Shown here: in pieces, positions 1,238 to 28,680 of the stretch
How positions within the stretch are numbered: position 1 is the stretch's first letter
Layout of the letters: the number at the start of each line of letters is the position of its first letter
Assembly (NCBI RefSeq): GCF_003966335.1
Contig: NZ_CP034549.1
Location: 2,700,001 to 2,732,000, forward strand
Reading direction: 5' to 3'
DNA from: Nonlabens ponticola
GTDB taxonomy: Bacteria; Bacteroidota; Bacteroidia; Flavobacteriales; Flavobacteriaceae
DNA: 32,000 bases
The notes under the pieces: model-generated
Databases searched by the model: none
Seen by the model: only the letters and a program-made list of their open reading frames with translations
What the model was told of the DNA's origin: nothing
Program-made: the position numbers and the translations under genes

Positions 1238-1255
1238 ATTGATTTTGTTGATTAC

Positions 1256-1269
1256 GCTTTCGCGAAAGC
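1256..1269. repeat. GCTTTCGCGAAAGC palindrome, copy 1 (intergenic; palindrome extends to 18 nt, 1254..1271 ACGC..GCGT)
   Basis: Read directly from the sequence; it is a perfect self-complement. Confidence 0.95.
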
Positions 1270-1294
1270 GTGTTCCCTCTAAACCAATTCAAAT

Positions 1295-2044
1295 ATGACC
1301 ATGAAACACACTTATAACATTGAAGGAATGACCTGCACGAGCTGCAGTGCTGCCGTTGAGAAGTCGCTTAAAAAAGTTGCTGGTATCGACGAGGTAAGCG
1401 TTGATCTGGAAAACAAACAAGCAACGGTAGAAATGAAGCAACATGTGGCTCTATCTGAGCTGCGTGAGACTTTGCCTTCAAAATATTCCATTTCTCAAGT
1501 TGAGGAAACAAACAATTTTAATAATACAGGCGCGACCTCAACTACCATGATGTCCAACAATGTAGAAGAGAGTAAATGGCAACAATTAAAACCGTTATTC
1601 TTGATTTTGGGATATATCGCGGCGGCTACAATCTTGCTCAATTACTCACGTGATAATTGGAATGGGGCGATGCTGGATTTTATGGGATTGTTCTTTATCG
1701 TTTTTAGCTTTTTCAAGATTCTTGATCTTCAAGGTTTTCCTGAAAGCTTTAAAATGTACGATCCACTTGCCAAGATCTTTCCGGCATACGGCTGGATCTA
1801 TCCGTTTATAGAAACAGCACTTGGATTGATGTTCTTGATGCGATTTGAGATTGACATTGCTTTGATAATCACTTTAGTTATCTTGGGAATAACCACTGTA
1901 GGCGTGACTAAAACATTGTTGGATAAAAAATCCATTCAATGTGCTTGTCTGGGAACGGCACTCAAATTACCTATGACCCAAGCTACCTTTATTGAGAACG
2001 CCATCATGATTGTCATGGCAGTGGTCATGTTATTTATCCTTTAA
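1295..2044 (+). CDS. HMA domain fused to a MauE/DoxX-like multi-pass membrane domain
   Basis: N-terminal HMA motif GMTCTSCSAAVEKSLKKV. After a linker there are about 4 hydrophobic helices and a conserved-looking QCACLG Cys pair, as in the CxC(F/L)G motif of MauE-type proteins. Confidence 0.65.
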   Translation: MTMKHTYNIEGMTCTSCSAAVEKSLKKVAGIDEVSVDLENKQATVEMKQHVALSELRETLPSKYSISQVEETNNFNNTGATSTTMMSNNVEESKWQQLKPLFLILGYIAAATILLNYSRDNWNGAMLDFMGLFFIVFSFFKILDLQGFPESFKMYDPLAKIFPAYGWIYPFIETALGLMFLMRFEIDIALIITLVILGITTVGVTKTLLDKKSIQCACLGTALKLPMTQATFIENAIMIVMAVVMLFIL

Positions 2045-2050
2045 AAACAT

Positions 2051-2080
2051 AAATGCCCAGCTCTTGAAAGCTGGGCATTT
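2051..2080. terminator. Bidirectional rho-independent terminator between convergent genes
   Basis: 11-bp stem aaatgcccagc / gctgggcattt with an 8-nt loop. It is flanked by an A-run on one side and a T-run on the other. Confidence 0.75.
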
Positions 2081-2102
2081 TGATGTTGAATAGGCTTATC
2101 GC

Positions 2103-2603
2103 TTACTTACCTTCTGTATCGATACCTAGTTTCATAGCGACTTCCTTAGTGATGTTCACACCAGGCTCTGCATAGATAAGAACTTTACCGTCAACGACTG
2201 CTTTAAGTCCTTTTGCCTTTGCAACTTCCTCGATCGCTTTGTTCAATTTCTCGAGAATTGGCTTCATCAAGTCATTTTCTTTAGCGCCTAATTGCAGCTC
2301 TGCCGCCTTGCTTGAGTTTACATATTCTTTTTGTAACGCAGCTGCCTGTTGTTGGATGTTTTGCTGTTCTGCTTCAGTAACATTAGGCTTCTGAGCTTGA
2401 TACTGCAATTCTTGCATTTTAGCTGCAGACTTTGCTTCCATTTCTTGAAGATCAGCTTGAAGCTTTTGAGTAAGTTGAGTGATCTCTTTACGGATAGGTT
2501 CAACTTCTGGCATGTTTGCAAGAATAGCTTCATACTGCACATATCCTGTTTGTGCCATGGCACTACCTGCGACTAGAAATAATAATAAAAGTACTTTCTT
2601 CAT
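2103..2603 (-). CDS. OmpH/Skp-family periplasmic chaperone
   Basis: Signal peptide MKKVLLLLFLVAGSAMAQ, a Q/E/K-rich coiled-coil core, and a size of about 165 aa typical of Bacteroidetes OmpH. Confidence 0.75.
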   Translation of the reverse strand: MKKVLLLLFLVAGSAMAQTGYVQYEAILANMPEVEPIRKEITQLTQKLQADLQEMEAKSAAKMQELQYQAQKPNVTEAEQQNIQQQAAALQKEYVNSSKAAELQLGAKENDLMKPILEKLNKAIEEVAKAKGLKAVVDGKVLIYAEPGVNITKEVAMKLGIDTEGK

Positions 2604-2715
2604 TTTTGAAATTTTAAAGGGCGCAAGATAAGCAATCTACTTATGTTGCTATTAGTTTGGATGCGATATTCAAATACTAGACCAAAGTTGCAACAGATAG
2701 TTTAATAATATTTAA

Positions 2716-4065
2716 CTACTTCTTATTGCGCCTATTATAGTTTTTATCACCACGCGTTTTAGGCTTCTTGTATTTTTTGGCAATCTCTCTTCTATAGCTA
2801 CCGCCTTGATTGGTTTTCTTATTCTTGTCTTTTTTTTCATGAAAAGAAGCACCTTTCTCATCCTCAATCACCGTATGTGGATTGTAGCGCTCTACAACCC
2901 GAGGTTGCTCCTCTGGTGTTTTTTGTTTTGAGATCTCAACTTCTTCGGGCAAAGAGATGACAGGAATCTCTTGACTCATCAAACTTTCAATCTGCCTTTT
3001 GTATTCTTCTTCTTGTTCCGTATAGAACAACAGCGACGTTCCTTTTTCATCAGCACGACCAGTACGACCTATGCGATGCATGTAATTTTCTGGAAATTTG
3101 GGTGTGTCCATGTTTATAACGTGTGTGATCTTGTCAAGATCCAGACCACGTGCCATGACGTCTGTAGCAATCAAGATGCGAGCATCGCCACCGTCAAACA
3201 ACTCGATACTGCGCAATCGGTAATTTTGAGTCTTGTTAGAATGAATGACCGCAAGCTCACTACCGTAATGGGGTGATAATATTTCCTGTAGTCTATCGGC
3301 ACTCTTTTTTGTTTCTACAAAAACCAGGACTTTAGAATATTCTTGAGCATTGCTCAATAGGTGCATGAGCAAATTTGCCTTGGTATAATAATTAGGAACA
3401 GGATAACAGTATTGATCTATATTCTCTAATGGTGTTCCCGATACGGCGATGCTTATTTTTTCTGGATTGTAAAAATAGGATTTGATGAATTCTTCAATCT
3501 GATCTGTCATCGTCGCTGAGAACATGATGTTTTGCCTGCGTGTAGGCAGGTGATCAAAAATATTAGTCAGCTGAAATCTAAAACCCAAATCCAGCATCAC
3601 ATCTACCTCATCAATCACGACCTTTTTACAATACTTGAGTTTTACCGACTGTGCTACCGTTAGGTCATACAAACGACCTGGCGTAGCAATGAGAATGTCG
3701 CAACCTTCGGCAAGTGCTTTCTTCTGGGTATTGATGTTTGTACCACCGTAGACACCTAAAACACGAGTGTTTATATACTTTGCATAGCTCTCAACTTGCT
3801 CTACTACTTGCACTACTAATTCTCTGGTAGGAACTAAAATCAATACGCGTGGATCCAACGACTCGCTATACTGTAATTCATGAAGTAAAGGCAACATATA
3901 TCCCAATGTCTTTCCAGTACCAGTTTGTGCAATTCCTATGGTATCACGACCACTCAATATTACTGGGAAAGCCTCTTCCTGTATAGGTGTCATGGTTTCA
4001 AATCCTAGATCTACCAATCCATTTAGCAATGGCGTCTTAAGATTAAGGTCTGTAAAGGCTTTCAT
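2716..4065 (-). CDS. DEAD-box ATP-dependent RNA helicase with a basic C-terminal tail
   Basis: Q motif TPIQEEAFP, motif I AQTGTGKT, motif II DEVD, motif III SAT and motif VI HRIGRTGRA; K/R-rich tail. The track start at 4137 is probably over-extended. MKAFTDLNL at 4065 matches a typical helicase N terminus and lies 15 nt downstream of a TAnnTTTG motif. Confidence 0.9.
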   Translation of the reverse strand: MKAFTDLNLKTPLLNGLVDLGFETMTPIQEEAFPVILSGRDTIGIAQTGTGKTLGYMLPLLHELQYSESLDPRVLILVPTRELVVQVVEQVESYAKYINTRVLGVYGGTNINTQKKALAEGCDILIATPGRLYDLTVAQSVKLKYCKKVVIDEVDVMLDLGFRFQLTNIFDHLPTRRQNIMFSATMTDQIEEFIKSYFYNPEKISIAVSGTPLENIDQYCYPVPNYYTKANLLMHLLSNAQEYSKVLVFVETKKSADRLQEILSPHYGSELAVIHSNKTQNYRLRSIELFDGGDARILIATDVMARGLDLDKITHVINMDTPKFPENYMHRIGRTGRADEKGTSLLFYTEQEEEYKRQIESLMSQEIPVISLPEEVEISKQKTPEEQPRVVERYNPHTVIEDEKGASFHEKKDKNKKTNQGGSYRREIAKKYKKPKTRGDKNYNRRNKK

Positions 4066-4080
4066 AATCGTGATTTGATG

Positions 4081-4088
4081 CAAAGGTA
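4081..4088 (-). promoter_or_regulatory. Bacteroidetes -7 promoter element (TACCTTTG on the minus strand) for the helicase
   Basis: Exact match to the TAnnTTTG consensus, 15 nt upstream of the ATG at 4065. Confidence 0.5.
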
Positions 4089-4248
4089 CTTCTTTGAGAA
4101 CTTGAAAACTTGCGTAGAGATAATGAAACCAGTTCAACGTGACAAGCTAGTGCTCGTATTACGCAGAATTTATCTCAGCGCCTCAAGCAAATTCGCCGGG
4201 CAAATGCTGAAACCAGTTTAGCATGACGAGAAACGATTACCAACCGCC

Positions 4249-4256
4249 TATCTTTG
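4249..4256 (+). promoter_or_regulatory. Bacteroidetes -7 promoter element (TATCTTTG) for rlmF
   Basis: Exact TAnnTTTG match ending 4 nt before the GTG at 4261, which implies a leaderless or near-leaderless mRNA. Confidence 0.45.
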
Positions 4257-4260
4257 CTGG

Positions 4261-5115
4261 GTGCATTTAAGAAACATACATCGATACGGGTACGACTTTC
4301 CTAAACTGGTCGCCGCTCACCCTAAATTACAGGATCATATTATAAAAACGCCTACCGGTGCCGAAAGCATAGATTTTGATCAACCGGCGTCTATACTGGC
4401 TTTCAACACGGCATTGCTCAAGCATCACTACAAAGTCAAGTACTGGAAGTTGCCCGCAGGAACGCTTTATCCACCTATTCCTGGGCGTGCAGATTACATT
4501 CATCACCTCGCAGATCTTGTAGGCAAAGGAGAGAAGAAAGGACTAGATATAGGCTGTGGCGCGAGTGCCATCTACCCTATTCTGGGTAATGCCATCTATG
4601 ATTGGACGATGGTAGGTAGCGATGTAGAAGATAGCAGCATCGCATCAGCGCGCGATAACACATTAAAAAATGACGCTATCGAGATACGCCAGCAAGTAGA
4701 TAAATCAAATCTTTTTACAGGTATCATCAAAGAGGGAGAATATTTTGATTTCACGATGTGCAATCCACCTTTTTACGGTAGCGAGGAAGAAGCTCTCAAG
4801 GAGAATTTGAAAAAACAGCGTAAACTAGGCAAAAATCAAGATGGTCGCAATTTCGCTGGTATGGCTCACGAGCTTTGGTGTAATGGCGGTGAGGCCTTGT
4901 TTGTAAAACGATTGATTAAGGAATCAGTTTCTTTTAAGGATCAGGTAGGATGGTTTACTAGTTTGCTTTCGCGAAAGCAAAATCTACCAAAACTTCAAAA
5001 ACAACTCAAAAGACTCAACGCAGATCAACAAGTGATTACCATGCAGACTGGGAATAAGGAAAGTAGAATCCTCGCATGGCGATTTGTAGATCAGGAACCT
5101 AATAAAGAAGCGTAA
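4261..5115 (+). CDS. rlmF: 23S rRNA (adenine1618-N6)-methyltransferase RlmF
   Basis: HLRNIHRYGYDF.., PPIPGRADYIHHLADL, GCGASAIYP (SAM-binding motif) and the catalytic CNPPFY parallel E. coli RlmF. GTG start: the in-frame stop at 4219-4221 leaves no upstream ATG. Confidence 0.85.
   Translation: MHLRNIHRYGYDFPKLVAAHPKLQDHIIKTPTGAESIDFDQPASILAFNTALLKHHYKVKYWKLPAGTLYPPIPGRADYIHHLADLVGKGEKKGLDIGCGASAIYPILGNAIYDWTMVGSDVEDSSIASARDNTLKNDAIEIRQQVDKSNLFTGIIKEGEYFDFTMCNPPFYGSEEEALKENLKKQRKLGKNQDGRNFAGMAHELWCNGGEALFVKRLIKESVSFKDQVGWFTSLLSRKQNLPKLQKQLKRLNADQQVITMQTGNKESRILAWRFVDQEPNKEA
4965..4978. repeat. GCTTTCGCGAAAGC palindrome, copy 2 (inside rlmF; palindrome extends to 20 nt, 4962..4981)
   Basis: Read directly. 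Translated as L-L-S-R-K-Q. Confidence 0.95.
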
Positions 5116-5279
5116 TGTTCGGACTATTCAAGAAAAAAACTGAGGCAGAAAAACTGCAAGAGCAATACTCAAAACTCATGGCAGACTACCACCGACTTTC
5201 TACCACAGACCGCGCAGCGAGCGACGCAGCCTATGCAAAAGCTGATGAGATCGCCAAAAAGCTGGACTCGCTTAAATAA
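5115..5279 (+). CDS. Small 54-aa protein, Lacal_2735-like family (absent from the ORF track)
   Basis: Hand translation gives MFGLFKKKTEAEKLQEQYSKLMADYHRLSTTDRAASDAAYAKADEIAKKLDSLK. The ATG overlaps the rlmF stop (TAATG). The sequence resembles the small helical flavobacterial proteins that begin MFGLFKKK. Confidence 0.6.
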   Translation: MFGLFKKKTEAEKLQEQYSKLMADYHRLSTTDRAASDAAYAKADEIAKKLDSLK

Positions 5280-5280
5280 C

Positions 5281-7065
5281 CTACATCTGGTCTGGTACCT
5301 GAATACCTAATAACTGGCAACCTGTCTTTATAACTTGTGCCGTTTTATAACTCAACAATAATCTGAAGTGTTTGAGATCTGCATTGCTTTCCTCAACAAT
5401 TTTGGGCACGTTTTGATAAAAACTATTGAACTCTTTGACCAGATCAAATAAATAATTTGCCACCAGCGCTGGACTATAATTGCGGGCTGCTGCTTGTACT
5501 GTTTCGGGAAACTGCTGAAGCAATTTGACGATGGCTAGATCCTTGTCAGTCAATTCGAGATTAGTTGCCGCGGTGAGTTGCTGATCATTAAAACCTGCCT
5601 TACTTAAAATCGATTTTATACGGGCATGTGCATATTGAATGAATGGTCCAGTATTACCCTGAAAATCTACCGATTCTTTAGGGTCAAAAACCATGCTTTT
5701 CTTTGGGTCAATCTTGAGCATGAAATACTTGAGAGCTCCTAGGCCTATCATGCGGTATAATTCCTCGCGCTGCTCTTGATCCAGACCGTCTAACTTTCCT
5801 TGTTCTTGTGCTATTTCTCTTGCGGTATTGGTCATTTCGGCGATCATGTCATCTGCATCAACGACCGTTCCTTCTCGAGATTTCATTTTACCATGCGGTA
5901 GCTCAATCATACCATAACTCAAGTGGTACAGGTTGTCTGCCCATTCATAGCCCAGCTTTTTGAGAATCAAAAACAGCACCTTAAAGTGGTAATCCTGCTC
6001 GTTACCCACAGTATAAACCATGCTATCAATATTGTGATCCTTGACGCGCTGTATAGCGGTACCTATATCTTGAGTCATGTAAACGGCCGTACCGTCACTG
6101 CGCAATACGATTTTTTCATCCAGACCATCAGCCGTTAAATCAATCCAGACAGATCCATCCTCTTTCTTGAAGAAAACACCATTGTTGAGTCCATGTGCAA
6201 TCACATCCTTACCTAATAAATAGGTGTCGCTCTCATAATACAAGCTGTCAAAGGTGACGCCTAGATCGCGATACGTGGTGTCAAAACCTGCATAAACCCA
6301 GCCGTTCATCATCTTCCACAATTTAACGGTTTCTTCATCGCCTTGCTCCCATTTGCGCAACATTTCTTGAGCTTCCAGAATGCTAGGCGCATTTTTGGCA
6401 GCTTCTTCCTGTGTTTGACCTTGCGCGACTAGTGCGGCAATCTCCTTTTTATACTCTTGGTCAAACTTCACATAGTAATCACCTACCAATTTATCACCCT
6501 TCACGCCTTGAGATTGAGGCGTCGCATTATCACCATACTTGACCCATGCCAGCATGGATTTACATATATGAATACCGCGATCGTTGATGATTTGGGTTTT
6601 GGTAACTTCTTTACCTGCAGCCTCGATGATTTGAGCCATGGAATAGCCTAGCACTATGTTGCGTATGTGACCTAAATGCAATGGCTTGTTGGTATTAGGT
6701 GAACTGTACTCGACCATGGTACCAGCGGCATCTTCATCTATTACTTTCCTACCATAAGTTTCATTTGCTACAATTGAATTAAAATCTTCCAGAAATGCTT
6801 CTGTCTTTATAGAAAGATTTAAAAATCCCTTGATGACCTCAATGCCTGAAACTAATTTAGTTTGATACTGTAACTCTTCACCTATTGCCTGTCCTATCGC
6901 TGCTGGATTGCCTTTAATGTGGCGCAGCATCGGGAACACCATGATGGTATAATCTCCTGATTGATCCTTTCGCGTAAGCGTAACCTCAACATTTTCCAGC
7001 TTTACTTCATAGAGTTTTTCTACGGCTTTTATGGTTTCTTCCTGCAGTTGTTGCACTAGGTTCAT
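5281..7065 (-). CDS. argS: Arginine--tRNA ligase
   Basis: Class I HIGH motif PLHLGHIRN, KMSKS-like KMKSREG, a C-terminal anticodon-binding region, and about 594 aa. The track start at 7071 is a TTG; the ATG at 7065 (MNLVQQ) is preferred. Confidence 0.93.
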   Translation of the reverse strand: MNLVQQLQEETIKAVEKLYEVKLENVEVTLTRKDQSGDYTIMVFPMLRHIKGNPAAIGQAIGEELQYQTKLVSGIEVIKGFLNLSIKTEAFLEDFNSIVANETYGRKVIDEDAAGTMVEYSSPNTNKPLHLGHIRNIVLGYSMAQIIEAAGKEVTKTQIINDRGIHICKSMLAWVKYGDNATPQSQGVKGDKLVGDYYVKFDQEYKKEIAALVAQGQTQEEAAKNAPSILEAQEMLRKWEQGDEETVKLWKMMNGWVYAGFDTTYRDLGVTFDSLYYESDTYLLGKDVIAHGLNNGVFFKKEDGSVWIDLTADGLDEKIVLRSDGTAVYMTQDIGTAIQRVKDHNIDSMVYTVGNEQDYHFKVLFLILKKLGYEWADNLYHLSYGMIELPHGKMKSREGTVVDADDMIAEMTNTAREIAQEQGKLDGLDQEQREELYRMIGLGALKYFMLKIDPKKSMVFDPKESVDFQGNTGPFIQYAHARIKSILSKAGFNDQQLTAATNLELTDKDLAIVKLLQQFPETVQAAARNYSPALVANYLFDLVKEFNSFYQNVPKIVEESNADLKHFRLLLSYKTAQVIKTGCQLLGIQVPDQM

Positions 7066-7083
7066 GGGCAAAATTTAAGCCCA

Positions 7084-7091
7084 CAAAGATA
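7084..7091 (-). promoter_or_regulatory. Bacteroidetes -7 promoter element (TATCTTTG on the minus strand) for argS
   Basis: Exact TAnnTTTG match, 18 nt upstream of the ATG at 7065. Confidence 0.5.
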
Positions 7092-7124
7092 GGAATTATG
7101 AAAGGCTTGAAGTCTTATACAGAC

Positions 7125-7132: not shown

Positions 7133-7144
7133 TAACTTGATGCC

Positions 7145-7570
7145 ATGCTATATAATGTATCTTACAATAGACCTAAAATTGATCGTGCCATAAGTGATGA
7201 AGTAGGTGGTGTTTTAAGCTTGCGCGAAAGGTGGAAACTCAAAGGCTCTGGTTCTCCTCAACTCCACATTAATAGTTGTAGCATTCATATTCACAATCTA
7301 TTGGTGCTGGATAACAATGCAGATAAATGTAATATCGAGATACGCGAGAAGGGTATTATCATCAGATTTAGATCATTGCTGGAAACATATGCATTGCCTA
7401 TTCCCTTTTATAAACTCACGATCTACAAAGGCCGCGCTGAGGAATACAGCATTTACCGCGATGATTATTTTGTCAAGGTACGCGCCAATCATAAATCCAT
7501 CCACAAATTCATGGGTAAAATAAGCCAGCTCAAAAGCGATCAGGGTTTCACTTATGTGGATGATTTGTAG
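7145..7570 (+). CDS. Hypothetical protein (141 aa, no recognisable motif)
   Basis: Clean ORF with its own promoter-like motif. No signal peptide, no TM segment, and no motif I can name. Confidence 0.5.
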   Translation: MLYNVSYNRPKIDRAISDEVGGVLSLRERWKLKGSGSPQLHINSCSIHIHNLLVLDNNADKCNIEIREKGIIIRFRSLLETYALPIPFYKLTIYKGRAEEYSIYRDDYFVKVRANHKSIHKFMGKISQLKSDQGFTYVDDL

Positions 7571-9273: not shown

Positions 9274-12200
9274 ATGTTTGCAACCATTTTTACCCACGAG
9301 ATCAAAACATGGTTTAAGAAACCTATGTTTTACATTTATACAGCGGTCGTTTTTTTATTGGCGCTTCTTCTATCTGCATCTGCAGTTGGTGTTTTTGACA
9401 GTGATAATGTCACGGTCACCGCTGCTATTAAATTGAATAGCGCCGTAGGTATTTACGGTACCGTTGGCGTTTTTGCTTTGATCACCTATCTACTGATTCC
9501 ATCAATAATTGGTGGTACGATTCAGCGTGATTTTTCCAACAACATGCACAATGTCTTGTATTCCTATCCGCTGACAAGGATTAGTTATTTGCTAGCAAAA
9601 TTCAGCGCAGGAATGTTGATCACTTTACTGGTCATCGTTTGTAGTGTGTTAGGATTGACATTAGGATATTATTTACCAGGAGCTAACGAGGCCTTGGTAG
9701 GTCCTTTTGAGATCATGAATTACTTACAGCCATTCTTGATTTACATCATTCCTAATGTATTCTTTTATGGCATTATCGTATTTTCTGTAACGGCATTCCT
9801 GCGTAATATCAATATTGGTTTTATGGTGGTGTTGATTATCATCATTGCTCAAGCCACGGCTGGTAGTTATTCCCAAACTATGGATGACACCTACTGGCTA
9901 GAATTATTGGAACCTACAGGTGATATTGCGACCCTTGAAAAAATAAAATACTGGACTCCAGAAGAACAAAGCAATCTACTTATTCCTGTCGAGGGCACCT
10001 TGCTCTACAATCGTATCATCTGGCTAGGGTTCTCTATTCTGGTGTTTGTGGGCTTACTCTTTAGCTTCAACTTTTCACAGTCTGCGACTGGCATTAGACT
10101 TAGAAAGTCTAATGGCCTACGAGTGACAAAAGCCAACTTCAGCACGCTACAACGTGTGGTGATGCCTAAGGTGACTCAGGATTTCAGCTTTTTCTCGCAG
10201 CTCAAGACTTCTTGGGTACTTGCCAAAGCTGATCTGAAATACATCATCACGGCCTATCCGTTTATTATAATTACGGTGATTGCGTTTGCCTTTTCATTAG
10301 TTACCATGCTGGCGACTGGTCAGGTATTTGGAACTGATATCCTGCCTAAGACCTGGTTGATGCTGCAATTTGTCACCGGTATTTACACCTTATTCATATA
10401 CTTCCTCGTGTTTTTATACGGTGGTTTGATCATGGATCGTGCTCGCGCAGCACACCTGAGCCAGATCATGGATGCAACGCCTACCAGCAATTGGGCGATA
10501 TTGCTGTCTAAGTTCATAGCCTTGGTCCTTATGGTATTCACGCTGCTATTCATCGTGATGCTCAGCGGTATATTCATACAGACCTACAATGGGTTTACTG
10601 AGTATCAAATACCACTGTATTTGTTTGATCTATACGTGGTCAACAGTTGGAATTTCCTGCCGTGGATATTTTTGACCTTATTCGTACACACACTCATCAA
10701 GAACAAATGGTTGGGCTTGATTGCGCTAGTAATTTTTGCCGTTGGCGTGCCTTTCTTGTTAGACGCCATAGGTGTTGAGCAAGCACAATTTAGATTCAAT
10801 CAAGGTGGTGGCTCGCCATCGCATAGTGATATGAATGGTTATGGATTTGCCTTGCCTCGATACTATTTCTATAAATTGTATTGGCTAGCATTGGGCATCG
10901 CCTTGTTTGTGATGGCTTTATTATTCTATAGACGTGGTATGAGCACTGGTGTTGGTGAACGTTTTGCTTTCGCGAAAGCGAGATTAACCACATCAAAGCT
11001 AACATCATTAATTGCCTCACTGGTGGTATTCCTAGCCATAGGAAGCTACATCTGGTATGTCAACAATATTGAGAACGAGGTTATGACCGGCAAGGAACGT
11101 GAATTGCTACAGGTCAATTTTGAAAAGGAACTGGGTCAGTTTGCTAATGCACCACAGCCGCAAACAGTGGCGATCAATACCTTTATCGATATATTCCCTG
11201 AATCACGAGATTTCAAGGCTGGAGCTACCTACACGCTGGTCAATAGGACTGATGTTGCCATTGATACGCTGCATGTAAATTATCCGGATCGCCCTACAGA
11301 AATTGAAATAAGCCGCGCTAGCAAGGTGGTTTATGACGATGAAGATTTTGATTACCGTATGTATGAATTTGAACAAGCATTGCAGCCAGGCGATACGATT
11401 GAATTTAAATTCAATACATGGAACGAGCCTAACACGTGGCTAGAGAACAACTCGCCAGTTCAAGAGAATGGAACCTTCATTAACAACGGTATTTTCCCAT
11501 CCATCGGGTACAACGAGCAGGTAGAGATACGCAACACACAGGTACGTGAGAAATATGACCTACCACCCAAGGATCGATTACCGGCGCCTATGATTCCTGG
11601 TGTGCAGGATCGCAACTATCTAGGTCCTAACGCACACTGGATAGATTTTGAAGCAACGGTAAGCACAGCGCCAGATCAAATTGCTATTGCACCAGGTTAT
11701 CTTACCAAGGAATGGGAAGAAGATGGTCGTCGTTATTTCCATTATAAAATGGATTCCAAAATGCTGAATTTCTACGCGTTTTTGAGCGGTAGATATGAAG
11801 TCCTGAAAGATCAGCACAATGGTGTAGCACTAGAGATTTACCATCATCCAGCACATACCTACAACATTGACCGTATGATGAATGGACTCAAGGAAGGTCT
11901 GGACTACTACAATGAGAATTTTACACCTTACCAGCATAGGCAGGCTCGTATTATAGAGTTTCCTAGAACGGCTGGTACCTTTGCCCAGGCATTTCCTAAC
12001 ACCATACCTTTTAGTGAAGGCATAGGATTCATTGCAGATGTTGATGACGAGAGCAATGACGATGTGGATTATCCATTTAGCGTGACGGCTCACGAGCTGG
12101 CACACCAGTGGTTTGCACACCAGATCGTTGGTGCAAATGCTAAAGGTGCTACCCTACTTTCTGAAAGTCTGTCAGAATACAGCAGCTTGCGTGTACTCGA

Positions 12201-12942
12201 GAAAACTCGTGGTATGGCAGACTTGCGCAACTTCTTGAAAGACGCTATGGATACCTACTTGCAGGGCGGCACAACAGAGCAGATAGGTGAAAATCCGTTG
12301 ATGTATAATGAGAATCAGCAGTACATCCATTACCAGAAAGGTTCATTGGTTTTATATGCCATGAGCGACTATCTAGGCGAGGACAAATTCAATGGTGTGG
12401 TCAAGGATTTTCTAGAAAAATACAAATTTCAAGGAGCACCGTATCCACTCGCGACCGAGTTTGTTGAGGATATAAAGACAGTTACTCCTGATAGTTTGCA
12501 GTATCTAGTCACTGATATGTTTGAGACCATCACGCTGTATGATAACAAGGTCAAAAAAGCTACTTATACAGAAAATAGCGATGGGTCTTATGATGTGAAT
12601 ATCAATGCCTATATCTCAAAATACCGTCGCGGTCCTAAAGGTAAATTCAAGTATGCCGGACAGCAAGGCGACAGCTTGACCTTTACTCCGGATGGTAAAA
12701 AGACCGCTATTAAATCCTTACCATTGGCAGACTATATTGAGATAGGCGTTTTTGGTGAGAATGATGAAGATACCAATGAGCCTGAGGTACTCTACCTAGA
12801 AAAGGTAAGGGTAGATCAAATTGATAACGATTTTAGTGTTCGCGTCATGAATAAACCGGTCGAGGCTGGTGTGGATCCTTACAATAAATTGATTGATCGC
12901 ATTATTGATGACAATCGCAGGAACGTTACTGAGAGTGAATAG
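9274..12942 (+). CDS. Fusion protein: ABC-2-type permease (about 12 TM segments, aa 1 to ~600) plus M1-family gluzincin peptidase domain
   Basis: The start lies 2 nt after the ATPase stop. There are two blocks of about 6 hydrophobic helices each. The C-terminal soluble region has HELAH at 12091..12105, followed 19 residues later by a Glu (SESLSEY). The canonical GAMEN exopeptidase motif is not evident; the nearest equivalent is IPFSEG. Confidence 0.8.
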   Translation: MFATIFTHEIKTWFKKPMFYIYTAVVFLLALLLSASAVGVFDSDNVTVTAAIKLNSAVGIYGTVGVFALITYLLIPSIIGGTIQRDFSNNMHNVLYSYPLTRISYLLAKFSAGMLITLLVIVCSVLGLTLGYYLPGANEALVGPFEIMNYLQPFLIYIIPNVFFYGIIVFSVTAFLRNINIGFMVVLIIIIAQATAGSYSQTMDDTYWLELLEPTGDIATLEKIKYWTPEEQSNLLIPVEGTLLYNRIIWLGFSILVFVGLLFSFNFSQSATGIRLRKSNGLRVTKANFSTLQRVVMPKVTQDFSFFSQLKTSWVLAKADLKYIITAYPFIIITVIAFAFSLVTMLATGQVFGTDILPKTWLMLQFVTGIYTLFIYFLVFLYGGLIMDRARAAHLSQIMDATPTSNWAILLSKFIALVLMVFTLLFIVMLSGIFIQTYNGFTEYQIPLYLFDLYVVNSWNFLPWIFLTLFVHTLIKNKWLGLIALVIFAVGVPFLLDAIGVEQAQFRFNQGGGSPSHSDMNGYGFALPRYYFYKLYWLALGIALFVMALLFYRRGMSTGVGERFAFAKARLTTSKLTSLIASLVVFLAIGSYIWYVNNIENEVMTGKERELLQVNFEKELGQFANAPQPQTVAINTFIDIFPESRDFKAGATYTLVNRTDVAIDTLHVNYPDRPTEIEISRASKVVYDDEDFDYRMYEFEQALQPGDTIEFKFNTWNEPNTWLENNSPVQENGTFINNGIFPSIGYNEQVEIRNTQVREKYDLPPKDRLPAPMIPGVQDRNYLGPNAHWIDFEATVSTAPDQIAIAPGYLTKEWEEDGRRYFHYKMDSKMLNFYAFLSGRYEVLKDQHNGVALEIYHHPAHTYNIDRMMNGLKEGLDYYNENFTPYQHRQARIIEFPRTAGTFAQAFPNTIPFSEGIGFIADVDDESNDDVDYPFSVTAHELAHQWFAHQIVGANAKGATLLSESLSEYSSLRVLEKTRGMADLRNFLKDAMDTYLQGGTTEQIGENPLMYNENQQYIHYQKGSLVLYAMSDYLGEDKFNGVVKDFLEKYKFQGAPYPLATEFVEDIKTVTPDSLQYLVTDMFETITLYDNKVKKATYTENSDGSYDVNINAYISKYRRGPKGKFKYAGQQGDSLTFTPDGKKTAIKSLPLADYIEIGVFGENDEDTNEPEVLYLEKVRVDQIDNDFSVRVMNKPVEAGVDPYNKLIDRIIDDNRRNVTESE
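10966..10979. repeat. GCTTTCGCGAAAGC palindrome, copy 3 (inside the permease-M1 gene)
   Basis: Read directly. Translated as A-F-A-K-A. Confidence 0.95.
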
Positions 12943-13059: not shown

Positions 13060-14487
13060 ATGAAGGTATTATTGACAGGTGCAAACGGTTACATAGGTGT
13101 ACGATTACTTTATGAGCTACTCAAAGCAGATCATGAAGTAGTTTGCGCCGTGCGCAGCGCCTCTCGCCTATCTGTTCCTGACGAGATCAAGGAACAAATC
13201 GAGATCATAGAAATTGATTTTCTCAAGCCGCCTAAGATTAATCCGATACCGCAGGATGTTGATGCGGCTTATTACTTGATCCATTCCATGACTAGCAGCA
13301 CCAGCTCATTTGATCAAATGGAAGCTGATAGTGCCAACAAATTTGTTGAACTGATTCAAGAAACATCATGCAGGCAGATCATTTACTTATCAGGAATTGT
13401 CAATCAAGAACAACTTAGTAAGCATTTGCTTTCGCGAAAGCGTGTTGAAGAAATACTATGTGCAAGCAAAATACCTTGTACGGTATTAAGGGCTGGAATT
13501 ATCGTGGGTAGCGGCAGCTCCTCTTTTGAGATTATACGTGATTTGTGCGAGAAATTACCCGTCATGATCACTCCAAAATGGGTCAATACGAAGACGCATC
13601 CGATTGCCATACGCAATGTGATGAGTTTTCTAGTAGGCGTTTTAGGAAGAGACGATTGCTTGAATGAGAGTTATGATATAGGCGGCAAGGACGTGCTAAG
13701 CTACAAGCAAATGATGCAGCAATATGCCAAAAACAGAAAGCTAAATCTATCCATCATCACGGTTCCTGTGATGACGCCTAAACTGAGTTCCTACTGGTTA
13801 TATTTTGTCACCAGTACTTCTTATAAACTAGCCACTAACCTTGTGGACAGCATGGCCGTTGAAGTCATCGCCAAAAACAATGATCTAGCAGATCGATTAG
13901 GTATCCAACTTTACACTTATCATGAAGCACTCAACATGGCTTTTGCCAAAATTGAGCAGAATAACGTTGCCAGCAGCTGGAAAGATTCTATGGTAAGCGG
14001 TAGGTTCAAACGCAATCTCAATAAATTCAAGAAAGTACCTACCTATGGATGTTTAAAGGATGCCCAAACCCAAAAAACCGATAACCCTCAAGAAGCGCTA
14101 CAGCGCATATGGTCCATAGGTGGCGATAATGGATATTACTACGCTAATTTCCTGTGGAAAATACGCGGCTATGTGGACAAACTAGCTGGTGGCGTTGGCC
14201 TAAGACGTGGTCGCACCAATCAGGACAAAATCTATGCTGGTGACTCGCTGGACTTTTGGCGTGTGCTGGTAGCCGATAAGGAAGAAAAAAGACTGTTGCT
14301 TTTTGCTGAAATGCGCGTTCCTGGCGAGGCCTGGCTAGAGTTTGAAATTGATGAAGACAACGTCGTACATCAAACAGCCACCTTCAGACCTCGCGGATTG
14401 ACTGGTAGGTTGTATTGGTACAGCATGTTACCATTCCACTATTTTATTTTTAATGGAATGATTAGGCATATTGCTACTGGGAAGTGA
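13060..14487 (+). CDS. NAD(P)-binding SDR-family protein with a DUF2867-like C-terminal domain
   Basis: Rossmann motif LLTGANGYIGVRL at the N terminus. The C-terminal part (..FWRVL.., LLFAEMRVPGEAWLEFEI) resembles DUF2867. Confidence 0.7.
   Translation: MKVLLTGANGYIGVRLLYELLKADHEVVCAVRSASRLSVPDEIKEQIEIIEIDFLKPPKINPIPQDVDAAYYLIHSMTSSTSSFDQMEADSANKFVELIQETSCRQIIYLSGIVNQEQLSKHLLSRKRVEEILCASKIPCTVLRAGIIVGSGSSSFEIIRDLCEKLPVMITPKWVNTKTHPIAIRNVMSFLVGVLGRDDCLNESYDIGGKDVLSYKQMMQQYAKNRKLNLSIITVPVMTPKLSSYWLYFVTSTSYKLATNLVDSMAVEVIAKNNDLADRLGIQLYTYHEALNMAFAKIEQNNVASSWKDSMVSGRFKRNLNKFKKVPTYGCLKDAQTQKTDNPQEALQRIWSIGGDNGYYYANFLWKIRGYVDKLAGGVGLRRGRTNQDKIYAGDSLDFWRVLVADKEEKRLLLFAEMRVPGEAWLEFEIDEDNVVHQTATFRPRGLTGRLYWYSMLPFHYFIFNGMIRHIATGK
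13428..13441. repeat. GCTTTCGCGAAAGC palindrome, copy 4 (inside the SDR gene)
   Basis: Read directly. Translated as L-L-S-R-K-R. Confidence 0.95.
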
Positions 14488-15243: not shown

Positions 15244-16185
15244 TTATCTCCTAGGCAAGAAAACCTCAGCCATCATACAGCGCACGCTGCCGCCGCCTAA
15301 AGTTTCAATGGTTTTGATATCTGGATGGATGATCTCGTTGAACTTCTCTAGTTGTTTAATTTGGTTTTGATCTAGTGAGTTGTAGGCTTGATCGCTCATG
15401 ACCAGAAACTTCTTGCCAGTGGCATTTTTGACCTGGATCATATTGCCAGCAAATGCATTTACTTGATCTTCTGTAATGGCTACCACATGCTTACCATCTG
15501 CTTTTAAATGTTTTAAGACGTTCTTGCGTTGTTTTTTCTCATCAATACAGTCTAGACAGATTACCGCAAACTCCTCGCCTAGCGCCATCATGACGTTAGT
15601 GTGATAGATAGGTAGGCGCTTGTTATCTACCGTTTGATATGCGGTAAAAATGACTGGTGTGTATTCAAAATCTTCACAGAATTCGATCAACAAGTCTTCA
15701 TCGGCTCGCGGTGAGATGCTGCAGTAGGCTTTTTCATTGACGCGGTCCAGCAGCAAGCTGCCTGTTCCTTCTAGAAAAACGTCTTCATCTTCGGCACTGG
15801 TGTAATCGACGATGTTGTTGATTTGGAATCCTTCTTCCTCTAGCCTATCCAGTACCTCAGGTCTGCGTTCTAGTCTACGGTTTTCGGCAAACATGGGATA
15901 GAGCACTGCATCTCCATTGGCATGTGTAGACAACCAGTTGTTGGGGAAAATACTGTCAGGAGTATCGTGTTTATCATCATCACTTACAATGATAACGTTG
16001 ATGCCTTTTACTTGTAACGCTTTCGCGAAAGCGTCAAACTCATCCTGCGCCCTGCTGTTTGCAGTTGCATCCTTGATTTCCTGATGAAAATCTTGATCCT
16101 GGTAATAATTATTGACGGCAGTTTCTTCATTTAAACGGAACTGCACGGGACGCACCATGAGAATGGTATCGGTAATTTGACTCAT
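15244..16185 (-). CDS. ctlX: Guanidino-group-modifying superfamily hydrolase, CtlX-like (citrulline utilisation / arginine deiminase-related)
   Basis: N terminus ILMVRPVQFRLNEETAVNNYYQ and C-terminal catalytic-Cys motif GGGSVRCMMAEVF are typical of the COG4874/CtlX family. Confidence 0.6.
   Translation of the reverse strand: MSQITDTILMVRPVQFRLNEETAVNNYYQDQDFHQEIKDATANSRAQDEFDAFAKALQVKGINVIIVSDDDKHDTPDSIFPNNWLSTHANGDAVLYPMFAENRRLERRPEVLDRLEEEGFQINNIVDYTSAEDEDVFLEGTGSLLLDRVNEKAYCSISPRADEDLLIEFCEDFEYTPVIFTAYQTVDNKRLPIYHTNVMMALGEEFAVICLDCIDEKKQRKNVLKHLKADGKHVVAITEDQVNAFAGNMIQVKNATGKKFLVMSDQAYNSLDQNQIKQLEKFNEIIHPDIKTIETLGGGSVRCMMAEVFLPRR
16019..16032. repeat. GCTTTCGCGAAAGC palindrome, copy 5 (inside the ctlX-like gene; palindrome extends to 18 nt, 16017..16034)
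   Basis: Read directly. Translated on the minus strand as A-F-A-K-A. Confidence 0.95.
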
Positions 16186-17106
16186 TTAATCTCTGATTAA
16201 GGGTAAGGTAGAACAGCGCAACAGGCCTTCCTGCTTGGCGATCTCAGCATAGGGAACTTCTTCTACGGTGATGTTGTGTGAACGCAGCCAGTCATTCAAT
16301 CTTGTAAATCCACGTTCTGAAATGACGACATCTGGAGCGATAGAAAAGATGTTGGAATTCATGTGGTACATCTCATCTTTGGTGAGTTCAAAGCAGTTTT
16401 GCTTGCCAAAAAGATCTACCAAGAACTCATACTCTTCTTCTTCAAGAAAACCATTGCGATGAATGATGCACTTGTTGTGACCAACAGGCTGGAAACAACA
16501 ATCCAGGTGCAAAGCATTGTCTCTCGCAACTTCGTTAGACTTGCGCAGATTAAAACTGACAACTTTTTTATTTGGGAACGTTTTTTCTAACCATTCAACC
16601 GCTTGAACATTGGTACGAGCAGTAATGAAATTAGGATAATCATCGCCGCGATAAGTACCTACAAAAATGTAATCGTTGTGCACCATAACGTCGCCACCTT
16701 CTACATGAACTTCTTCTGGTGGTTTGATGATTTTGCTAGGATCGATCTTATTAAGAATATGCTGAATCGCCTCTATTTCCTGATCACGATCTGGCAGGAT
16801 ATTAGACTTGACAAATGTATCACCGATCACGAAGCCTATATCTCTAGTAAAAATCTGGTTGTAATCCTGAATCTGTACTGGCGAGAAGATCGCCACATCA
16901 TACTTTGATAGGACAGCTGCAACATGTGCCATCTCGATAATCATATCTGGATTTTGAGGATAAGTTCCTGCGGCAATATGCTCTCGTGATTTTGGGTCAT
17001 AGGCTTCTTCAAGACTAGGCGCAGCACCATTGCTCATGGCGGTTCCTAGAATGACGGCTCGCAGCCTGGCAGTCTCATTAGGTATGTGTAAATCGATTTT
17101 ATCCAT
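16186..17106 (-). CDS. Dimethylarginine dimethylaminohydrolase / amidinotransferase-family protein
   Basis: About 300 aa with motifs of the same superfamily (..ALHLDCCFQPV.., C-terminal EGLLRCSTLPL with a nucleophile Cys). Its stop directly abuts the start of the downstream ctlX-like gene with zero gap. Confidence 0.6.
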   Translation of the reverse strand: MDKIDLHIPNETARLRAVILGTAMSNGAAPSLEEAYDPKSREHIAAGTYPQNPDMIIEMAHVAAVLSKYDVAIFSPVQIQDYNQIFTRDIGFVIGDTFVKSNILPDRDQEIEAIQHILNKIDPSKIIKPPEEVHVEGGDVMVHNDYIFVGTYRGDDYPNFITARTNVQAVEWLEKTFPNKKVVSFNLRKSNEVARDNALHLDCCFQPVGHNKCIIHRNGFLEEEEYEFLVDLFGKQNCFELTKDEMYHMNSNIFSIAPDVVISERGFTRLNDWLRSHNITVEEVPYAEIAKQEGLLRCSTLPLIRD

Positions 17107-20785: not shown

Positions 20786-20799
20786 GCTTTCGCGAAAGC
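20786..20799. repeat. GCTTTCGCGAAAGC palindrome, copy 6 (intergenic)
   Basis: Read directly. Confidence 0.95.
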
Positions 20800-20822: not shown

Positions 20823-20850
20823 AAAAAACGGCGACCAGATGGCCGCCGTT
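20823..20850 (-). terminator. Rho-independent terminator after the metalloprotease gene
   Basis: GC-rich stem cggcgacc / ggccgccg with one mismatch and a 4-nt loop. A T-run follows on the minus strand. It lies about 30 nt past the stop codon. Confidence 0.7.
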
Positions 20851-20880
20851 ATCGTCTATTAGCTCCAAAACAAATAAACG

Positions 20881-26112: not shown

Positions 26113-26255
26113 CGTTTATTTGTTTTGGAACGGCAAATAAATACGATTAAGTGCTATAATCCTAAATTTTACTTAATAAAAAATGTCTTTTATCTTAATG
26201 TACTGTATTTAAACGACGAAAGCCACCTGTTAAAGTGGCTGTTTATCGATATTAT

Positions 26256-26269
26256 GCTTTCGCGAAAGC
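26256..26269. repeat. GCTTTCGCGAAAGC palindrome, copy 7 (intergenic, about 10 nt downstream of the eno stop)
   Basis: Read directly. Confidence 0.95.
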
Positions 26270-26278
26270 GTAATGGTT

Positions 26279-27565
26279 CTAAATCTGGAACGCTTTACGT
26301 CCAGGAAAGTAGGCTGAATCATTCAATTCTTCCTCAATCCTAAGTAGCTGATTGTACTTTGCCATACGATCAGATCTTGAGGCAGATCCAGTTTTTATCT
26401 GTCCAGTACCTAGGGCAACTGCAAGGTCTGCAATGGTATTATCCTCAGTCTCACCACTGCGGTGTGACATTACAGATGTAAAGCCTGCTTTATGGGCCAT
26501 ACTAACCGCAGCGATGGTCTCGCTGAGTGTCCCTATCTGATTCACTTTAATCAAGATGCTGTTTGCAATATTTTCCTTGATACCACGAGAGAGTCTCTCA
26601 ACGTTAGTCACAAAAAGATCATCGCCTACCAGCTGTACCTTATCACCTATAAGATCGGTGACCATTTTCCAGCCATCCCAATCATTCTCATCCATTCCAT
26701 CCTCGATAGAGATGATAGGATATTTACTGGCTAGTTGTGCTAGATATTCTGCCTGCTGTTGGCTTGTGCGCTTAACGCCAGTGTCTCCTTCAAACTTGGT
26801 ATAATCATACATGCCATCCACGTAAAACTCTGCAGCGGCACAATCAAGAGCGATCATCACTTGCTCACCTGGTGTATATCCAGCATTTTTGATAGCTAGT
26901 AATATTGTGTCAAGGGCATCTTCAGTTCCATCTAGTGTAGGTGCAAATCCACCTTCATCTCCTACTGCAGTGCTTAATCCACGATCATGCAATACTTTCT
27001 TTAGATGGTGAAAAATCTCGGTACCCATTTTTAATGCCTGACTAAAGCTATCTGCTTCCACTGGCATCACCATAAATTCTTGAAATGCAATGGGCGCATC
27101 ACTGTGGGAACCACCGTTGATAATGTTCATCATAGGTACCGGCAAGGTTGCTGCACTCATACCGCCGATGTATTTGTATAATGGCTGGTTGAGTTCATTA
27201 GCGGCCGCCTTTGCAACTGCAAGAGATACTCCTAGAATCGCATTAGCTCCCAACTTAGCTTTATTAGATGTGCCATCCAGATCGATCATGGTTTGATCAA
27301 TATAGCTTTGCTCAAATACGGATACTCCACGCAATTCATCTGCAATGGCAGTATTTACATTGTTTATAGCATTCTTGACACCTTTACCCATGTAATCGCT
27401 ACCGCCGTCACGCAACTCGACAGCTTCATGCTCACCTGTCGACGCTCCTGATGGCACGGCTGCTCTACCCATGATACCATTTGCTGTTATTACATCAACT
27501 TCTACCGTTGGGTTACCTCGAGAATCAAAAATTTGTCTCGCGTGTATATCTATAATTGTACTCAT
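26279..27565 (-). CDS. eno: Enolase (phosphopyruvate hydratase)
   Basis: [25 protein letters not shown], signature [12 protein letters not shown] and SHRSGETED. The start overlaps the carA stop (ATGA). Confidence 0.96.
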
Positions 27566-28680
27566 ATTGTTTCTTGTTTAGTTGTATTGATTAATTCTAT
27601 AAATTGGTCAAAAAGATAGGTCGCGTCATTAGGACCTGGTCCAGCTTCTGGGTGATATTGAACAGAAAAGCATGGTTTTGAAATTAGTTTTATACCAGCC
27701 ACTGTATCATCATTAAGATGCATGTGTGTTATTTTGACATCAGGATTGCTCTGTGCTTCCTCTTTATTGATGGCAAATCCATGATTTTGTGAGGTAATCT
27801 CACCTTTATTATTTTCAAGATTTTGTACCGGATGATTGATTCCTCTATGACCGGTGTGCATTTTATAGGTACTGATCCCATTTGCAAGGGCTATCACTTG
27901 ATGACCCAAGCATATTCCAAATAGTGGATGTTGTTTTTCTAGTACCGCTTTCGCGAAAGCTACCGCATCGACCAGCGGTGCAGGATCACCAGGACCGTTT
28001 GAAATGAAGTAACCGTCTGGGTTGAATGATAAAGTTTCCTCATAAGTCGCATTAAAAGGGAAAACCTTGATATAGCAATCCCTAGAAGCTAGGTTGCGCA
28101 AGATATTGGTTTTAACTCCAAGGTCTAAAGCTGCAATGCGATATTGAGCATTTTCATCACCAAAGTAATAGGGCTCTTTAGTGGATACAGCGCTAGCCAA
28201 CTCTAGACCTTTCATGGACGGTGTATCATTCAATTGCTTCTTGAGTTGATCAACGTCATTTACCTGCGTGGACATGATGGCATTTTGAGCTCCATGATCC
28301 CTTATGTGACTGACCAATGCACGAGTATCAACATCTGAAATGATACATAAGTTATTGTCTTCCAAAAACTCAAAAAGTCCTTTATCAGCTGCCGGTCGTG
28401 AGAAATCACTAGAGAAGTTTTTACAAACTAGTCCTGCAATCTTGACCGAATCTGACTCTATATCAAAATCAGTAGTGCCGTAATTACCTATATGAGCATT
28501 TGTAGTGACCATGATCTGCCCATAGTACGATGGATCTGTAAAGATCTCCTGATAACCAGTCGTTCCTGTATTAAAACAAATCTCACCAGTTGCGTGATTC
28601 TGGGTGCTTACCATCTTACCATGAAATATGGTACCATCTTGTAACAGAATGATCGCGTCTTTTTTTTCTAAATATGCCAT
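27562..28680 (-). CDS. carA: Carbamoyl-phosphate synthase small (glutaminase) subunit
   Basis: N-terminal CPSase small-chain domain plus the class I amidotransferase triad context GICLGHQ and ..QYHPEA. Confidence 0.92.
27947..27960. repeat. GCTTTCGCGAAAGC palindrome, copy 8 (inside carA)
   Basis: Read directly. Translated on the minus strand as A-F-A-K-A. Confidence 0.95.

Follow-up and report, generated by a model that had tools for sequence, protein, structure and literature searches.

How does a single 14-nt perfect palindrome come to recur eight times within 32,000 nt of a bacterial chromosome, inside genes as well as between them? The question is raised by a stretch of the Nonlabens ponticola genome (NZ_CP034549.1, positions 2,700,001 to 2,732,000 of the forward strand), which is called the window here at its full length of 32,000 nt; labels such as L001 denote the loci of relatives with which it was compared. 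The palindrome, GCTTTCGCGAAAGC, has exact copies at 1256, 4965, 10966, 13428, 16019, 20786, 26256 and 27947, just as a preliminary description had listed them against a chance expectation of about 1e-4. The disproportion is real: the word was encountered in none of 100 dinucleotide-preserving shuffles of the window, and Markov models of order 1 to 5, with the copies masked, predict 1e-5 to 1e-4 occurrences per window. All eight TTCGCGAA octamers of the window fall within 14-mer copies, and no other palindrome of 12 or 14 nt is present there more than once.

The motif is a lineage-wide property of the Nonlabens-Dokdonia group and is not peculiar to the window. A scan with CtlX as the query, taking one genome per species, retrieved 80 loci, 10 of which make up the clade set together with the window; CtlX identity to the window is highest in L001 (80%) and lies at 73-77% in the Nonlabens species. 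The 14-mer is the commonest palindrome, with 2-6 copies per ~20 kb, in Nonlabens (L002, L003, L004, L006, L008 and L041), in a Dokdonia metagenome-assembled genome (MAG; L064) and in two Flavobacteriaceae MAGs (L001 and L005), and the 11 sequences of the clade set, window included, hold 44 copies in 219 kb, or about one per 5 kb. L005 and L064 show the same motif density although they share almost no synteny with the window. The count is zero in the 70 loci from other genera, which amount to ~1.3 Mb of Aquimarina, Winogradskyella, Tenacibaculum, Gramella/Christiangramia, Algibacter and others. A metagenome scan with a 16-mer yielded at least 120 stretches. Among the matches listed, 104 low-GC marine metagenome stretches contain 171 copies in 674 kb, in unrelated contexts, and 16 high-GC metagenome stretches contain single chance matches. 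When the exact copies are masked, no further word is over-represented except one-sided variants of the same motif. At about one copy per 4-5 kb, a genome of a few Mb would be expected to contain several hundred copies.

L007 (Nonlabens sp. MAG 3300049783_147) is the sole clade locus in which the 14-mer is not the top palindrome. It has no exact copy in 11 kb and shows the decayed forms ACTTTCGCGAAAGC and GCATTTGCGAAAGC at 5543 and 5837, where relatives are exact, and it may belong to a lineage that is losing the element. The same locus also contains TTTTCACGTGAAAA, which is similar to the parS consensus TGTTTCACGTGAAACA. A different 14-nt palindrome, CTATAACGTTATAG, is found once each in the ctlX region of the Aquimarina loci L009, L011, L012, L013, L016, L018, L020, L022, L031 and L036; its appearance is that of a single conserved site of the operator type and not of an iterated element.

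The clade species are ~72-75% identical in alignable DNA, with the exception of L006 and L008, which are 90% identical to each other. Within these alignments, the exact 14-mer is kept in 126 of 183 orthologous pairwise comparisons (69%, over all ordered pairs) vs 4.7% for control 14-mers, which is a positional conservation ~15-fold above the controls; when only the sites of the window are considered, 18 of 32 are exact vs ~2.5% for controls. Conservation at 10-100 nt beside shared sites is not above background in divergent pairs. The deepest conserved site, at 13428..13441 within the SDR/DUF2867 gene (13060-14487, plus strand), is exact in L001, L002, L003, L004, L006, L008 and L041 at ~73% overall nucleotide identity. 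The copy at 10966..10979, within a 1222-aa M1-peptidase fusion gene (9274-12942, plus strand), is exact at the orthologous position in L002, L006, L008 and L041, and the intergenic copy at 26256..26269, which lies 10 nt downstream of the stop codon of eno (enolase; 26279-27565, minus strand), is exact in L003, L006, L008 and L041 and has 1 mismatch in L007. At the intergenic copy 1256..1269 the exact 14-mer is aligned in L003, L006 and L008, the L006 and L008 matches being missing from the reverse comparison.

Three window copies are intergenic (1256, 20786 and 26256) and five are genic, and the gene calls agree with what had been reported for both groups. The palindrome is read as A-F-A-K-A in the M1 fusion, in ctlX (copy at 16019..16032; gene 15244-16185, minus strand) and in carA (copy at 27947..27960; gene 27562-28680, minus strand), and as L-S-R-K in the SDR gene and in rlmF (copy at 4965..4978; gene 4261-5115, plus strand). 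The ctlX copy is present in the window, L001, L005 and L006, has 1 mismatch in L002, and is absent from L003, L004, L007, L008, L041 and L064 as well as from five aligned outgroups (L009, L026, L038, L045 and L067). These outgroups carry the peptide D-x-F/Y-V/A-x-x-L where the motif bearers have D-A-F-A-K-A-L, identically encoded. In carA, the A-F-A-K-A of the window stands in a variable segment where relatives have QTAKD, KLTKK or QTARK; the site is found only in the window, as a lineage-specific gain, and 8 of 15 nt differ from L007. Alignment to relatives reveals no indel at the ctlX or the carA copy. The motif is imposed on these two genes against the ancestral amino-acid sequence, by nonsynonymous changes without indels.

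An alignment of orthologues had been proposed as a check on how the palindrome arises, and its outcome, high exact retention together with nonsynonymous change in ctlX and carA, upholds the view that the motif acts at the DNA level in the manner of the cyanobacterial HIP1 (highly iterated palindrome): it is lineage-wide, stands in unrelated contexts, is conserved well over controls and is imposed on protein without indels. Selection or drive thus maintains the motif as DNA, and neither its peptide nor an RNA nor a mobile insert is what is being kept.

Placement relative to genes was derived from a simple call based on open reading frames (ORFs), by which 88% of bases are coding. Among the matches listed, 195 of the 214 sites with full flanks have unique contexts, and 118 of these 195 unique sites (61%) are coding, the remaining 39% lying in spacers, a 3.3-fold spacer enrichment. 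Convergent, divergent and tandem spacers are used by the unique sites without preference; where the spacer is tandem, 30 of 39 sites are closer to the upstream stop, with medians of 50 nt from the stop and 120 nt to the next start. Within the window, the copy at 1256 lies 19 nt past the stop of an NHL-repeat ORF (410-1237) and 26 nt before the ORF at 1295. The copy at 20786..20799 is 82 nt from the preceding stop, that of a gene for a 1743-aa metalloprotease sorted by the type IX secretion system, and comes directly after the terminator-like hairpin belonging to this gene (20827-20850); the citrate synthase start is 166 nt farther downstream. All reading phases are used by the coding sites among the matches listed (60 in phase 0, 20 in phase 1 and 18 in phase 2), which favors A-F-A-K-A, and the coding copies of ctlX and carA sit in variable protein segments. 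The window sites are also spaced more evenly than random ones, with a coefficient of variation of 0.40 (P = 0.017) and a minimum gap of 1691 nt (P = 0.024). The rplQ-rpoA-rpsD-rpsK-rpsM block (window 28000-32000) is motif-free, the carA site at 27947 being the last of the window; the strong conservation and high expression of these genes may impose a constraint here, yet 4 kb is a normal spacing.

The sequence beside the core is not neutral in composition. It usually reads YGC..GCR, so that the palindrome is often 18-22 nt long overall; in the unseeded clade set, C at -1 or G at +1 is found in 77% of half-sites and G at -1 is never seen, and in a larger set of sites a frequent palindromic extension is T-T-N-C-[core]-G-N-A-A (TTNC..GNAA). 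The extended dyads that had been described for the window are present: ACGC..GCGT makes 18-nt palindromes at 1254-1271 (ACGCTTTCGCGAAAGCGT) and, around the ctlX copy, at 16017-16034, and TTTGC..GCAAA makes a 20-nt one at 4962-4981. Further outward, the 5' arm is G/T-rich and C-poor (C 3-9% vs 18% background, GC skew +0.4 to +0.7, T more frequent than A), and the 3' arm is its mirror image, A/C-rich and G-poor. The skew is marked between -4 and about -18, weakens toward about -30 and is lost farther out. In the window it is clearest at 1256 (arms 1238-1252 and 1273-1287; no C in the left one, no G in the right one), 4965 (1 C, 0 G), 10966 (1 C, 0 G) and 20786 (0 C, 0 G). The arms also share a weak consensus, with T at -3, -4, -7, -10 and -13, and because of this shared arm signature a repeat finder aligns the copies at 65-89% over 27-35 nt.

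Spacer sites and coding sites of all three phases show the same arm skew. It occurs at all codon positions, most strongly at the third, and its directions are C to T and A to G: at upstream third positions the fractions relative to control are 0.05/0.19 for C, 0.49/0.34 for T, 0.24/0.17 for G and 0.22/0.30 for A, and downstream they are the complement. For 71 genic sites that are 160 nt or more away from the gene ends, the G+T fraction of the sense strand is 0.64 upstream and 0.32 downstream vs 0.49 in the control. A transcription-driven skew, which predicted an asymmetry with gene direction, was rejected because the skew is symmetric to gene direction. An extended hairpin was rejected as well: in-register complementarity of the arms beyond +/-4 equals that of chimeric left/right controls, so that the arms share a composition and do not prolong the stem. 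The unit that functions thus exceeds 14 nt and is a dyad-symmetric element of ~50 bp made up of a 16-22 nt palindrome and ~18-nt skewed arms. On the strand 5' of the core the skew runs from amino to keto bases. Shifts of this direction are a signature of single strands exposed to deamination, or of a template strand on which lesions become fixed, and the mirror symmetry of the arms would point to something that starts at the dyad and runs outward 5' to 3' on each strand, for instance resection following a cut or short-patch resynthesis from symmetric nicks.

The composition of the arms and the closeness of spacer copies to stop codons could also be read at the level of RNA, where the hairpin would serve transcript termination, processing or the entry of Rho, or, in genes, at the level of a selected A-F-A-K-A peptide. 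The 14-22 nt dyad can fold into a weak to moderate hairpin of 5-11 bp with a CGCG loop (-3 to -9 kcal/mol), spacer copies lie shortly past stop codons, and the 3' arm is C-rich and G-poor like Rho utilization sites. Nevertheless, none of the eight window sites scores as an intrinsic terminator, the 3' arm being A/C-rich and not T-rich, and genuine terminators are found elsewhere (20827-20850 is an example); a comparison of the window with Rfam gave no match at the gathering score; the letters are conserved exactly, with no compensatory variation, in three phases and in both gene orientations; and the encoded peptide overrides ancestral residues. A role at this level is hardly credible.

A miniature mobile element is another reading that the flanks bear upon. 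The palindrome would then be what remains after arm decay of a very short miniature inverted-repeat transposable element (MITE) or of a hairpin of the type formed by repetitive extragenic palindromes (REP) and their associated tyrosine transposases (RAYT). One copy fits this: upstream of ctlX, L003 (at 9952), L004 (at 9969) and L005 (at about 9950, decayed to GCTTTTGCAAAAAC) have a 55-80 nt spacer with the palindrome, and this spacer is missing from seven relatives, so that intergenic copies can be indel-associated; in the window and six relatives the stop of an amidinotransferase-like gene abuts or overlaps the ctlX start (junction 16185/16186 in the window). The weak arm consensus and the spacer enrichment also fit, and REP elements, the bacterial interspersed mosaic elements (BIMEs) built from them and MITEs are likewise short dispersed palindromic repeats. 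Those elements, however, are extragenic, imperfect, born by insertion and conserved over a longer length, whereas ~60% of the unique sites here are genic (5/8 in the window), coding copies are replacements that leave the length unchanged, with no coding indels, and only the core of 14-16 bp is conserved between species, the arms not. The earlier statement that the flanks differ and that no longer insert is shared holds for the 195 of 214 unique contexts among the matches listed, in which the flanks are non-homologous; one correction to it is that the flanks are not featureless, since they share a dyad-symmetric compositional signature. Arm complementarity at the level of chimeric controls also opposes a mobile origin, and neither a target-site duplication nor a transposase context was seen. 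Altogether, a mobile element is very improbable.

Phages and resident mobile DNA offer a view of the motif outside the chromosome proper. The isolated Nonlabens phage P12024S (JQ823122, L319, 35.7 kb) has no copy even at two mismatches, and ~7 are expected at host density. It avoids CGCG (9 observed vs 43.6 expected), GGCC (0 vs 34.8) and CCGG (2 vs 33.9), a classic restriction-avoidance pattern, which suggests that its Nonlabens host carries restriction systems for GGCC, CCGG and CGCG; the avoidance of CGCG points to a host system, and presumably a methyltransferase, that acts on the motif centre, and it lends indirect support to the methyltransferase or nuclease target proposed in the preliminary description. 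The phage itself encodes a DNA methyltransferase, P12024S_51. In host DNA outside the motif, the observed/expected ratio (O/E) is 1.05 for TCGCGA and 0.81 for CGCG, and restriction avoidance in host DNA was rejected, TCGCGA being at expectation there. A scan of IMG/VR returned mostly chance singletons at high GC and a few low-GC prophage-like contigs with 2-3 copies per 11-14 kb. CGCG is not avoided in the low-GC prophage-like or viral contigs (L133, L169, L194, L197, L102, L116, L158 and L166), one of which, L133 (IMGVR_UViG_2617271332_000001), has copies at 4210, 7851 and 10955 and encodes a head maturation protease and an endolysin. A BLAST comparison of one prophage-like contig with isolated phages gave no match. 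The motif-bearing low-GC viral contigs look like resident or temperate elements, and resident mobile DNA of the lineage would thus also hold the motif.

A centre that may be methylated brings in the possibility that the palindrome is a functionless by-product. A CGCG/TCGCGA methyltransferase acting with a Vsr-like mismatch nickase or biased gene conversion would continually turn near-cognate sequences into the palindrome, and the repair patches would leave the skewed arms. The centre of the motif is indeed CGCG/TCGCGA, and the phage avoids CGCG 5-fold; decayed copies carry mostly C:G to T:A changes, several of them at the two CpGs; and arms of ~18-30 nt match short-patch resynthesis, with a polarity that would fit patches initiated at a nick and extended 5' to 3'. 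On the other hand, no known methyltransferase or Vsr-type enzyme reads 14-16 bp, and such a drive would favor a sub-site of 4-6 bp, which is not driven up outside the motif. The carA copy required ~8 substitutions, transversions included. Neutral replenishment also predicts turnover of positions, whereas orthologous positions are largely kept. It is the positional conservation, together with the normal sub-site frequency, that disfavors this explanation, and we consider it improbable. Explanations of this class were proposed for HIP1 by Elhai (PMC4390886), and positional retention was the argument used by Xu et al. against neutral repair in that case (PMC5861425).

Positional conservation and even spacing would also be explained by a binding site for a lineage-specific nucleoid or chromosome-organization protein, comparable to Noc, ParB, SlmA or MatP with far more sites, the copies being under selection for their positions as loop anchors or domain boundaries. 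Perfect dyads of 14-22 bp are typical of dimeric DNA binders, the conservation across species is strong, and the isolated phage lacks the motif. The sites of ParB (parS), Noc and SlmA are themselves dimer-bound perfect palindromes of 12-16 bp, sometimes genic, with TTTC...GAAA half-sites. However, they number from a few to ~70 per genome, compared with an extrapolated several hundred for the motif, and the known sets of specific nucleoid-protein sites are all at least 10-fold sparser than one per 4-5 kb. The half-sites are spaced differently, as TTTC-N2-GAAA in the motif and as TTTC-N4-GAAA in the parS/Noc site. The strand-asymmetric arms, in which G:C and C:G are told apart over ~18 nt, have no obvious role in duplex binding, and the frequent lineage-specific gains and losses (carA, ctlX, the decay in L007) and the presence of the motif in prophage-like contigs speak against it too. 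We regard this explanation as the main rival, though as rather unlikely. Xu et al. interpreted the periodicity of HIP1 in the same way and proposed such a role for it (PMC5861425).

Several known systems share features with the motif. HIP1 (GCGATCGC) of cyanobacteria is likewise a perfect palindrome, hyper-abundant throughout a lineage and present both inside and between genes; its orthologous positions are conserved beyond codon usage (the test applied here follows that of Xu et al., PMC5861425), its centre is a plausible methylation site, and its function has long been unexplained. The features by which HIP-class elements are recognized, namely an over-representation above 15-fold, a lineage-wide presence in and between genes and sites conserved above control words (Elhai 2015; Xu 2018), are found here; for a further one, sub-sites methylated by conserved orphan methyltransferases, the avoidance of CGCG by phage P12024S is an indirect hint. 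The motif is not HIP1 itself: sequence and phylum differ, and CGATCG has an O/E of 0.81 in host DNA. It also differs in being longer (14-22 bp vs 8-10 bp), ~10-fold sparser (0.2/kb vs up to ~3/kb) and far more enriched (~1e5-fold vs 15-300-fold), and it has ~18-nt skewed arms, of which no description was found for HIP1.

The uptake signal sequences (USS) of Pasteurellaceae and DNA uptake sequences (DUS) of Neisseriaceae are also lineage-specific exact words with hundreds to thousands of copies, common to related genera, enriched in spacers just past genes and, when genic, placed in tolerated frames and variable protein segments. Haemophilus USS has compositionally biased flanks as well. The pattern found here is of the same kind, a lineage-specific dense word that is enriched downstream of genes and tolerated in frame, at a density below that of USS and DUS. 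Those are asymmetric 9-12-mers at ~1 per kb, whereas the motif is a perfect dyad at 1 per 4-5 kb, and uptake bias and competence have been demonstrated for them. Chi, another over-represented lineage-specific word that some phages lack, is tied to the processing of double-strand breaks and to G/T-rich single-stranded DNA. It differs in being 5-8 nt long, asymmetric, strand-biased and read as single-stranded DNA, the motif being a 14-nt dyad without orientation.

One possible gain can be followed between close relatives. The main aligned block of L006 and L008, 15.8 kb long, is 93% identical, and the two differ at one motif site, the ctlX copy, which L006 has. The 72 nt around this copy contain 13 differences from L008, that is 18% vs 9% in the rest of ctlX (91% identical outside the tract). 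Eight of the 13 changes are toward the motif-bearing state of the window, and they also follow the arm skew, G being gained on the left and C on the right. The case is suggestive but ambiguous: a short tract may have been imported, or the arms may have evolved rapidly in situ once the motif had been acquired.

The explanation that we favor, tentatively and as a fair possibility only, is that the motif is a protein-recognized self signal like HIP1 and USS, at whose dyad processing is started and which serves DNA uptake, homologous recombination or both. The perfect 14-22 bp dyad would probably be the duplex recognition site of a homodimeric sequence-specific protein. Processing would start at the core, perhaps by nicking or cutting, and proceed outward 5' to 3' on each strand through a short resection or the resynthesis of a patch, of which the arms would probably be the record; the 5'-arm strands would be left single-stranded or used as a template, and C to T and A to G changes would be fixed on them. 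As a self signal, the motif would favor uptake and/or homologous recombination of DNA of its own lineage, an effect that may depend on methylation of the central CGCG. Spacer enrichment past stops, even spacing, copies in variable segments, the lack of the motif in the phage and the avoidance of CGCG by this phage are features shared with USS and HIP1 and are counted in favor of a self signal, as is the L006 ctlX tract with its twofold background divergence. HIP1 has been found to be conserved by selection (PMC5861425) and to raise transformation efficiency in a methylation-dependent manner (bioRxiv 10.1101/2024.09.10.611283), and Riemerella, so far the only member of the Flavobacteriaceae with demonstrated competence, is naturally competent with a preference for its own DNA, the signal not having been identified there (PMC7965970).

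Several points weigh against such a self signal. The prophage-like contigs hold the motif at host density, and the lack of the motif in P12024S is not independent of the avoidance of CGCG by this phage. Known uptake sequences are asymmetric, 9-12 nt long and ~4-fold denser, and we know of no competence, uptake specificity, nuclease or binding protein in Nonlabens or Dokdonia. A structural role that depends on position would account equally well for sites kept in place between such divergent species. The arm skew may stem from selection for a long (~50-bp) protein footprint and not from a mutational scar, given that the first and second codon positions are affected nearly as much as the third. 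Finally, the L006 tract is a single case and can also be read as in-situ arm evolution after gain. More specific, and in our view possible but rather doubtful, is an independent HIP-type system in Bacteroidota in which a dedicated homodimeric enzyme would cut or nick the dyad, the flanks would be the scar of outward processing and the motif would act as a Chi-like and USS-like signal within the Nonlabens-Dokdonia gene pool.

Some other sequences of the window resemble the motif or repeat within it. Two 12/14 matches that the preliminary description had counted as degenerate copies do exist, CCTTTCGCGTAAGC at 6966..6979 in argS and GCTTGCGCGAAAGG at 7218..7231 in the ORF at 7145-7570, but decay from the motif is improbable for both. 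At the former, the sequence of relatives is unrelated, so that the resemblance is probably due to chance; at the latter, the identical variant is kept in three other species (L006, L008 and L041), so that it is probably the protein that maintains it. A 23-nt direct repeat (TGAAACCAGTT.A.C.TGAC.AG, 83% identical) occurs at 4124-4146 and 4208-4230, 84 nt apart, one copy overlapping the 5' end of a DEAD-box helicase ORF and the other lying in the spacer before rlmF. The palindromic 10-mer AAATCGATTT is found twice (5607-5616 and 17090-17099) vs 0.06 expected, and one copy extends to TAAAATCGATTTTA; this duplication is probably due to chance.

Until now, short palindromes of such abundance have passed for a cyanobacterial peculiarity, their function being debated between nucleoid structure and DNA uptake or recombination. 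Full-text literature searches found no description of the 14-mer or of any HIP-like element in Flavobacteriia or Bacteroidota, in agreement with the earlier impression that no equivalent had been described, and the motif goes unmentioned in the genome papers of N. dokdonensis and D. donghaensis. The motif is a second, independent example of highly iterated palindromes of the cyanobacterial type, distinctive in its 14-22 bp dyad, its ~1e5-fold enrichment and its skewed arms. The same behavior is now seen in an unrelated phylum, with a word long enough that every copy is signal. The element shapes proteins, since A-F-A-K-A or L-S-R-K appear as insert-like patches with biased codons for ~6 residues on each side. 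The sharp phylogenetic boundary between Nonlabens and Dokdonia and the sampled neighbor genera makes profiling for the responsible protein feasible, and the flanking strand skew constrains the mechanism to one acting outward from the dyad on both strands. The motif is also a possible taxon marker, and it would become a practical handle if it improved the transformation of these marine flavobacteria. Should it indeed be a self signal of the HIP type, a word with essentially no chance background would make the 30-year-old question of HIP function directly testable.

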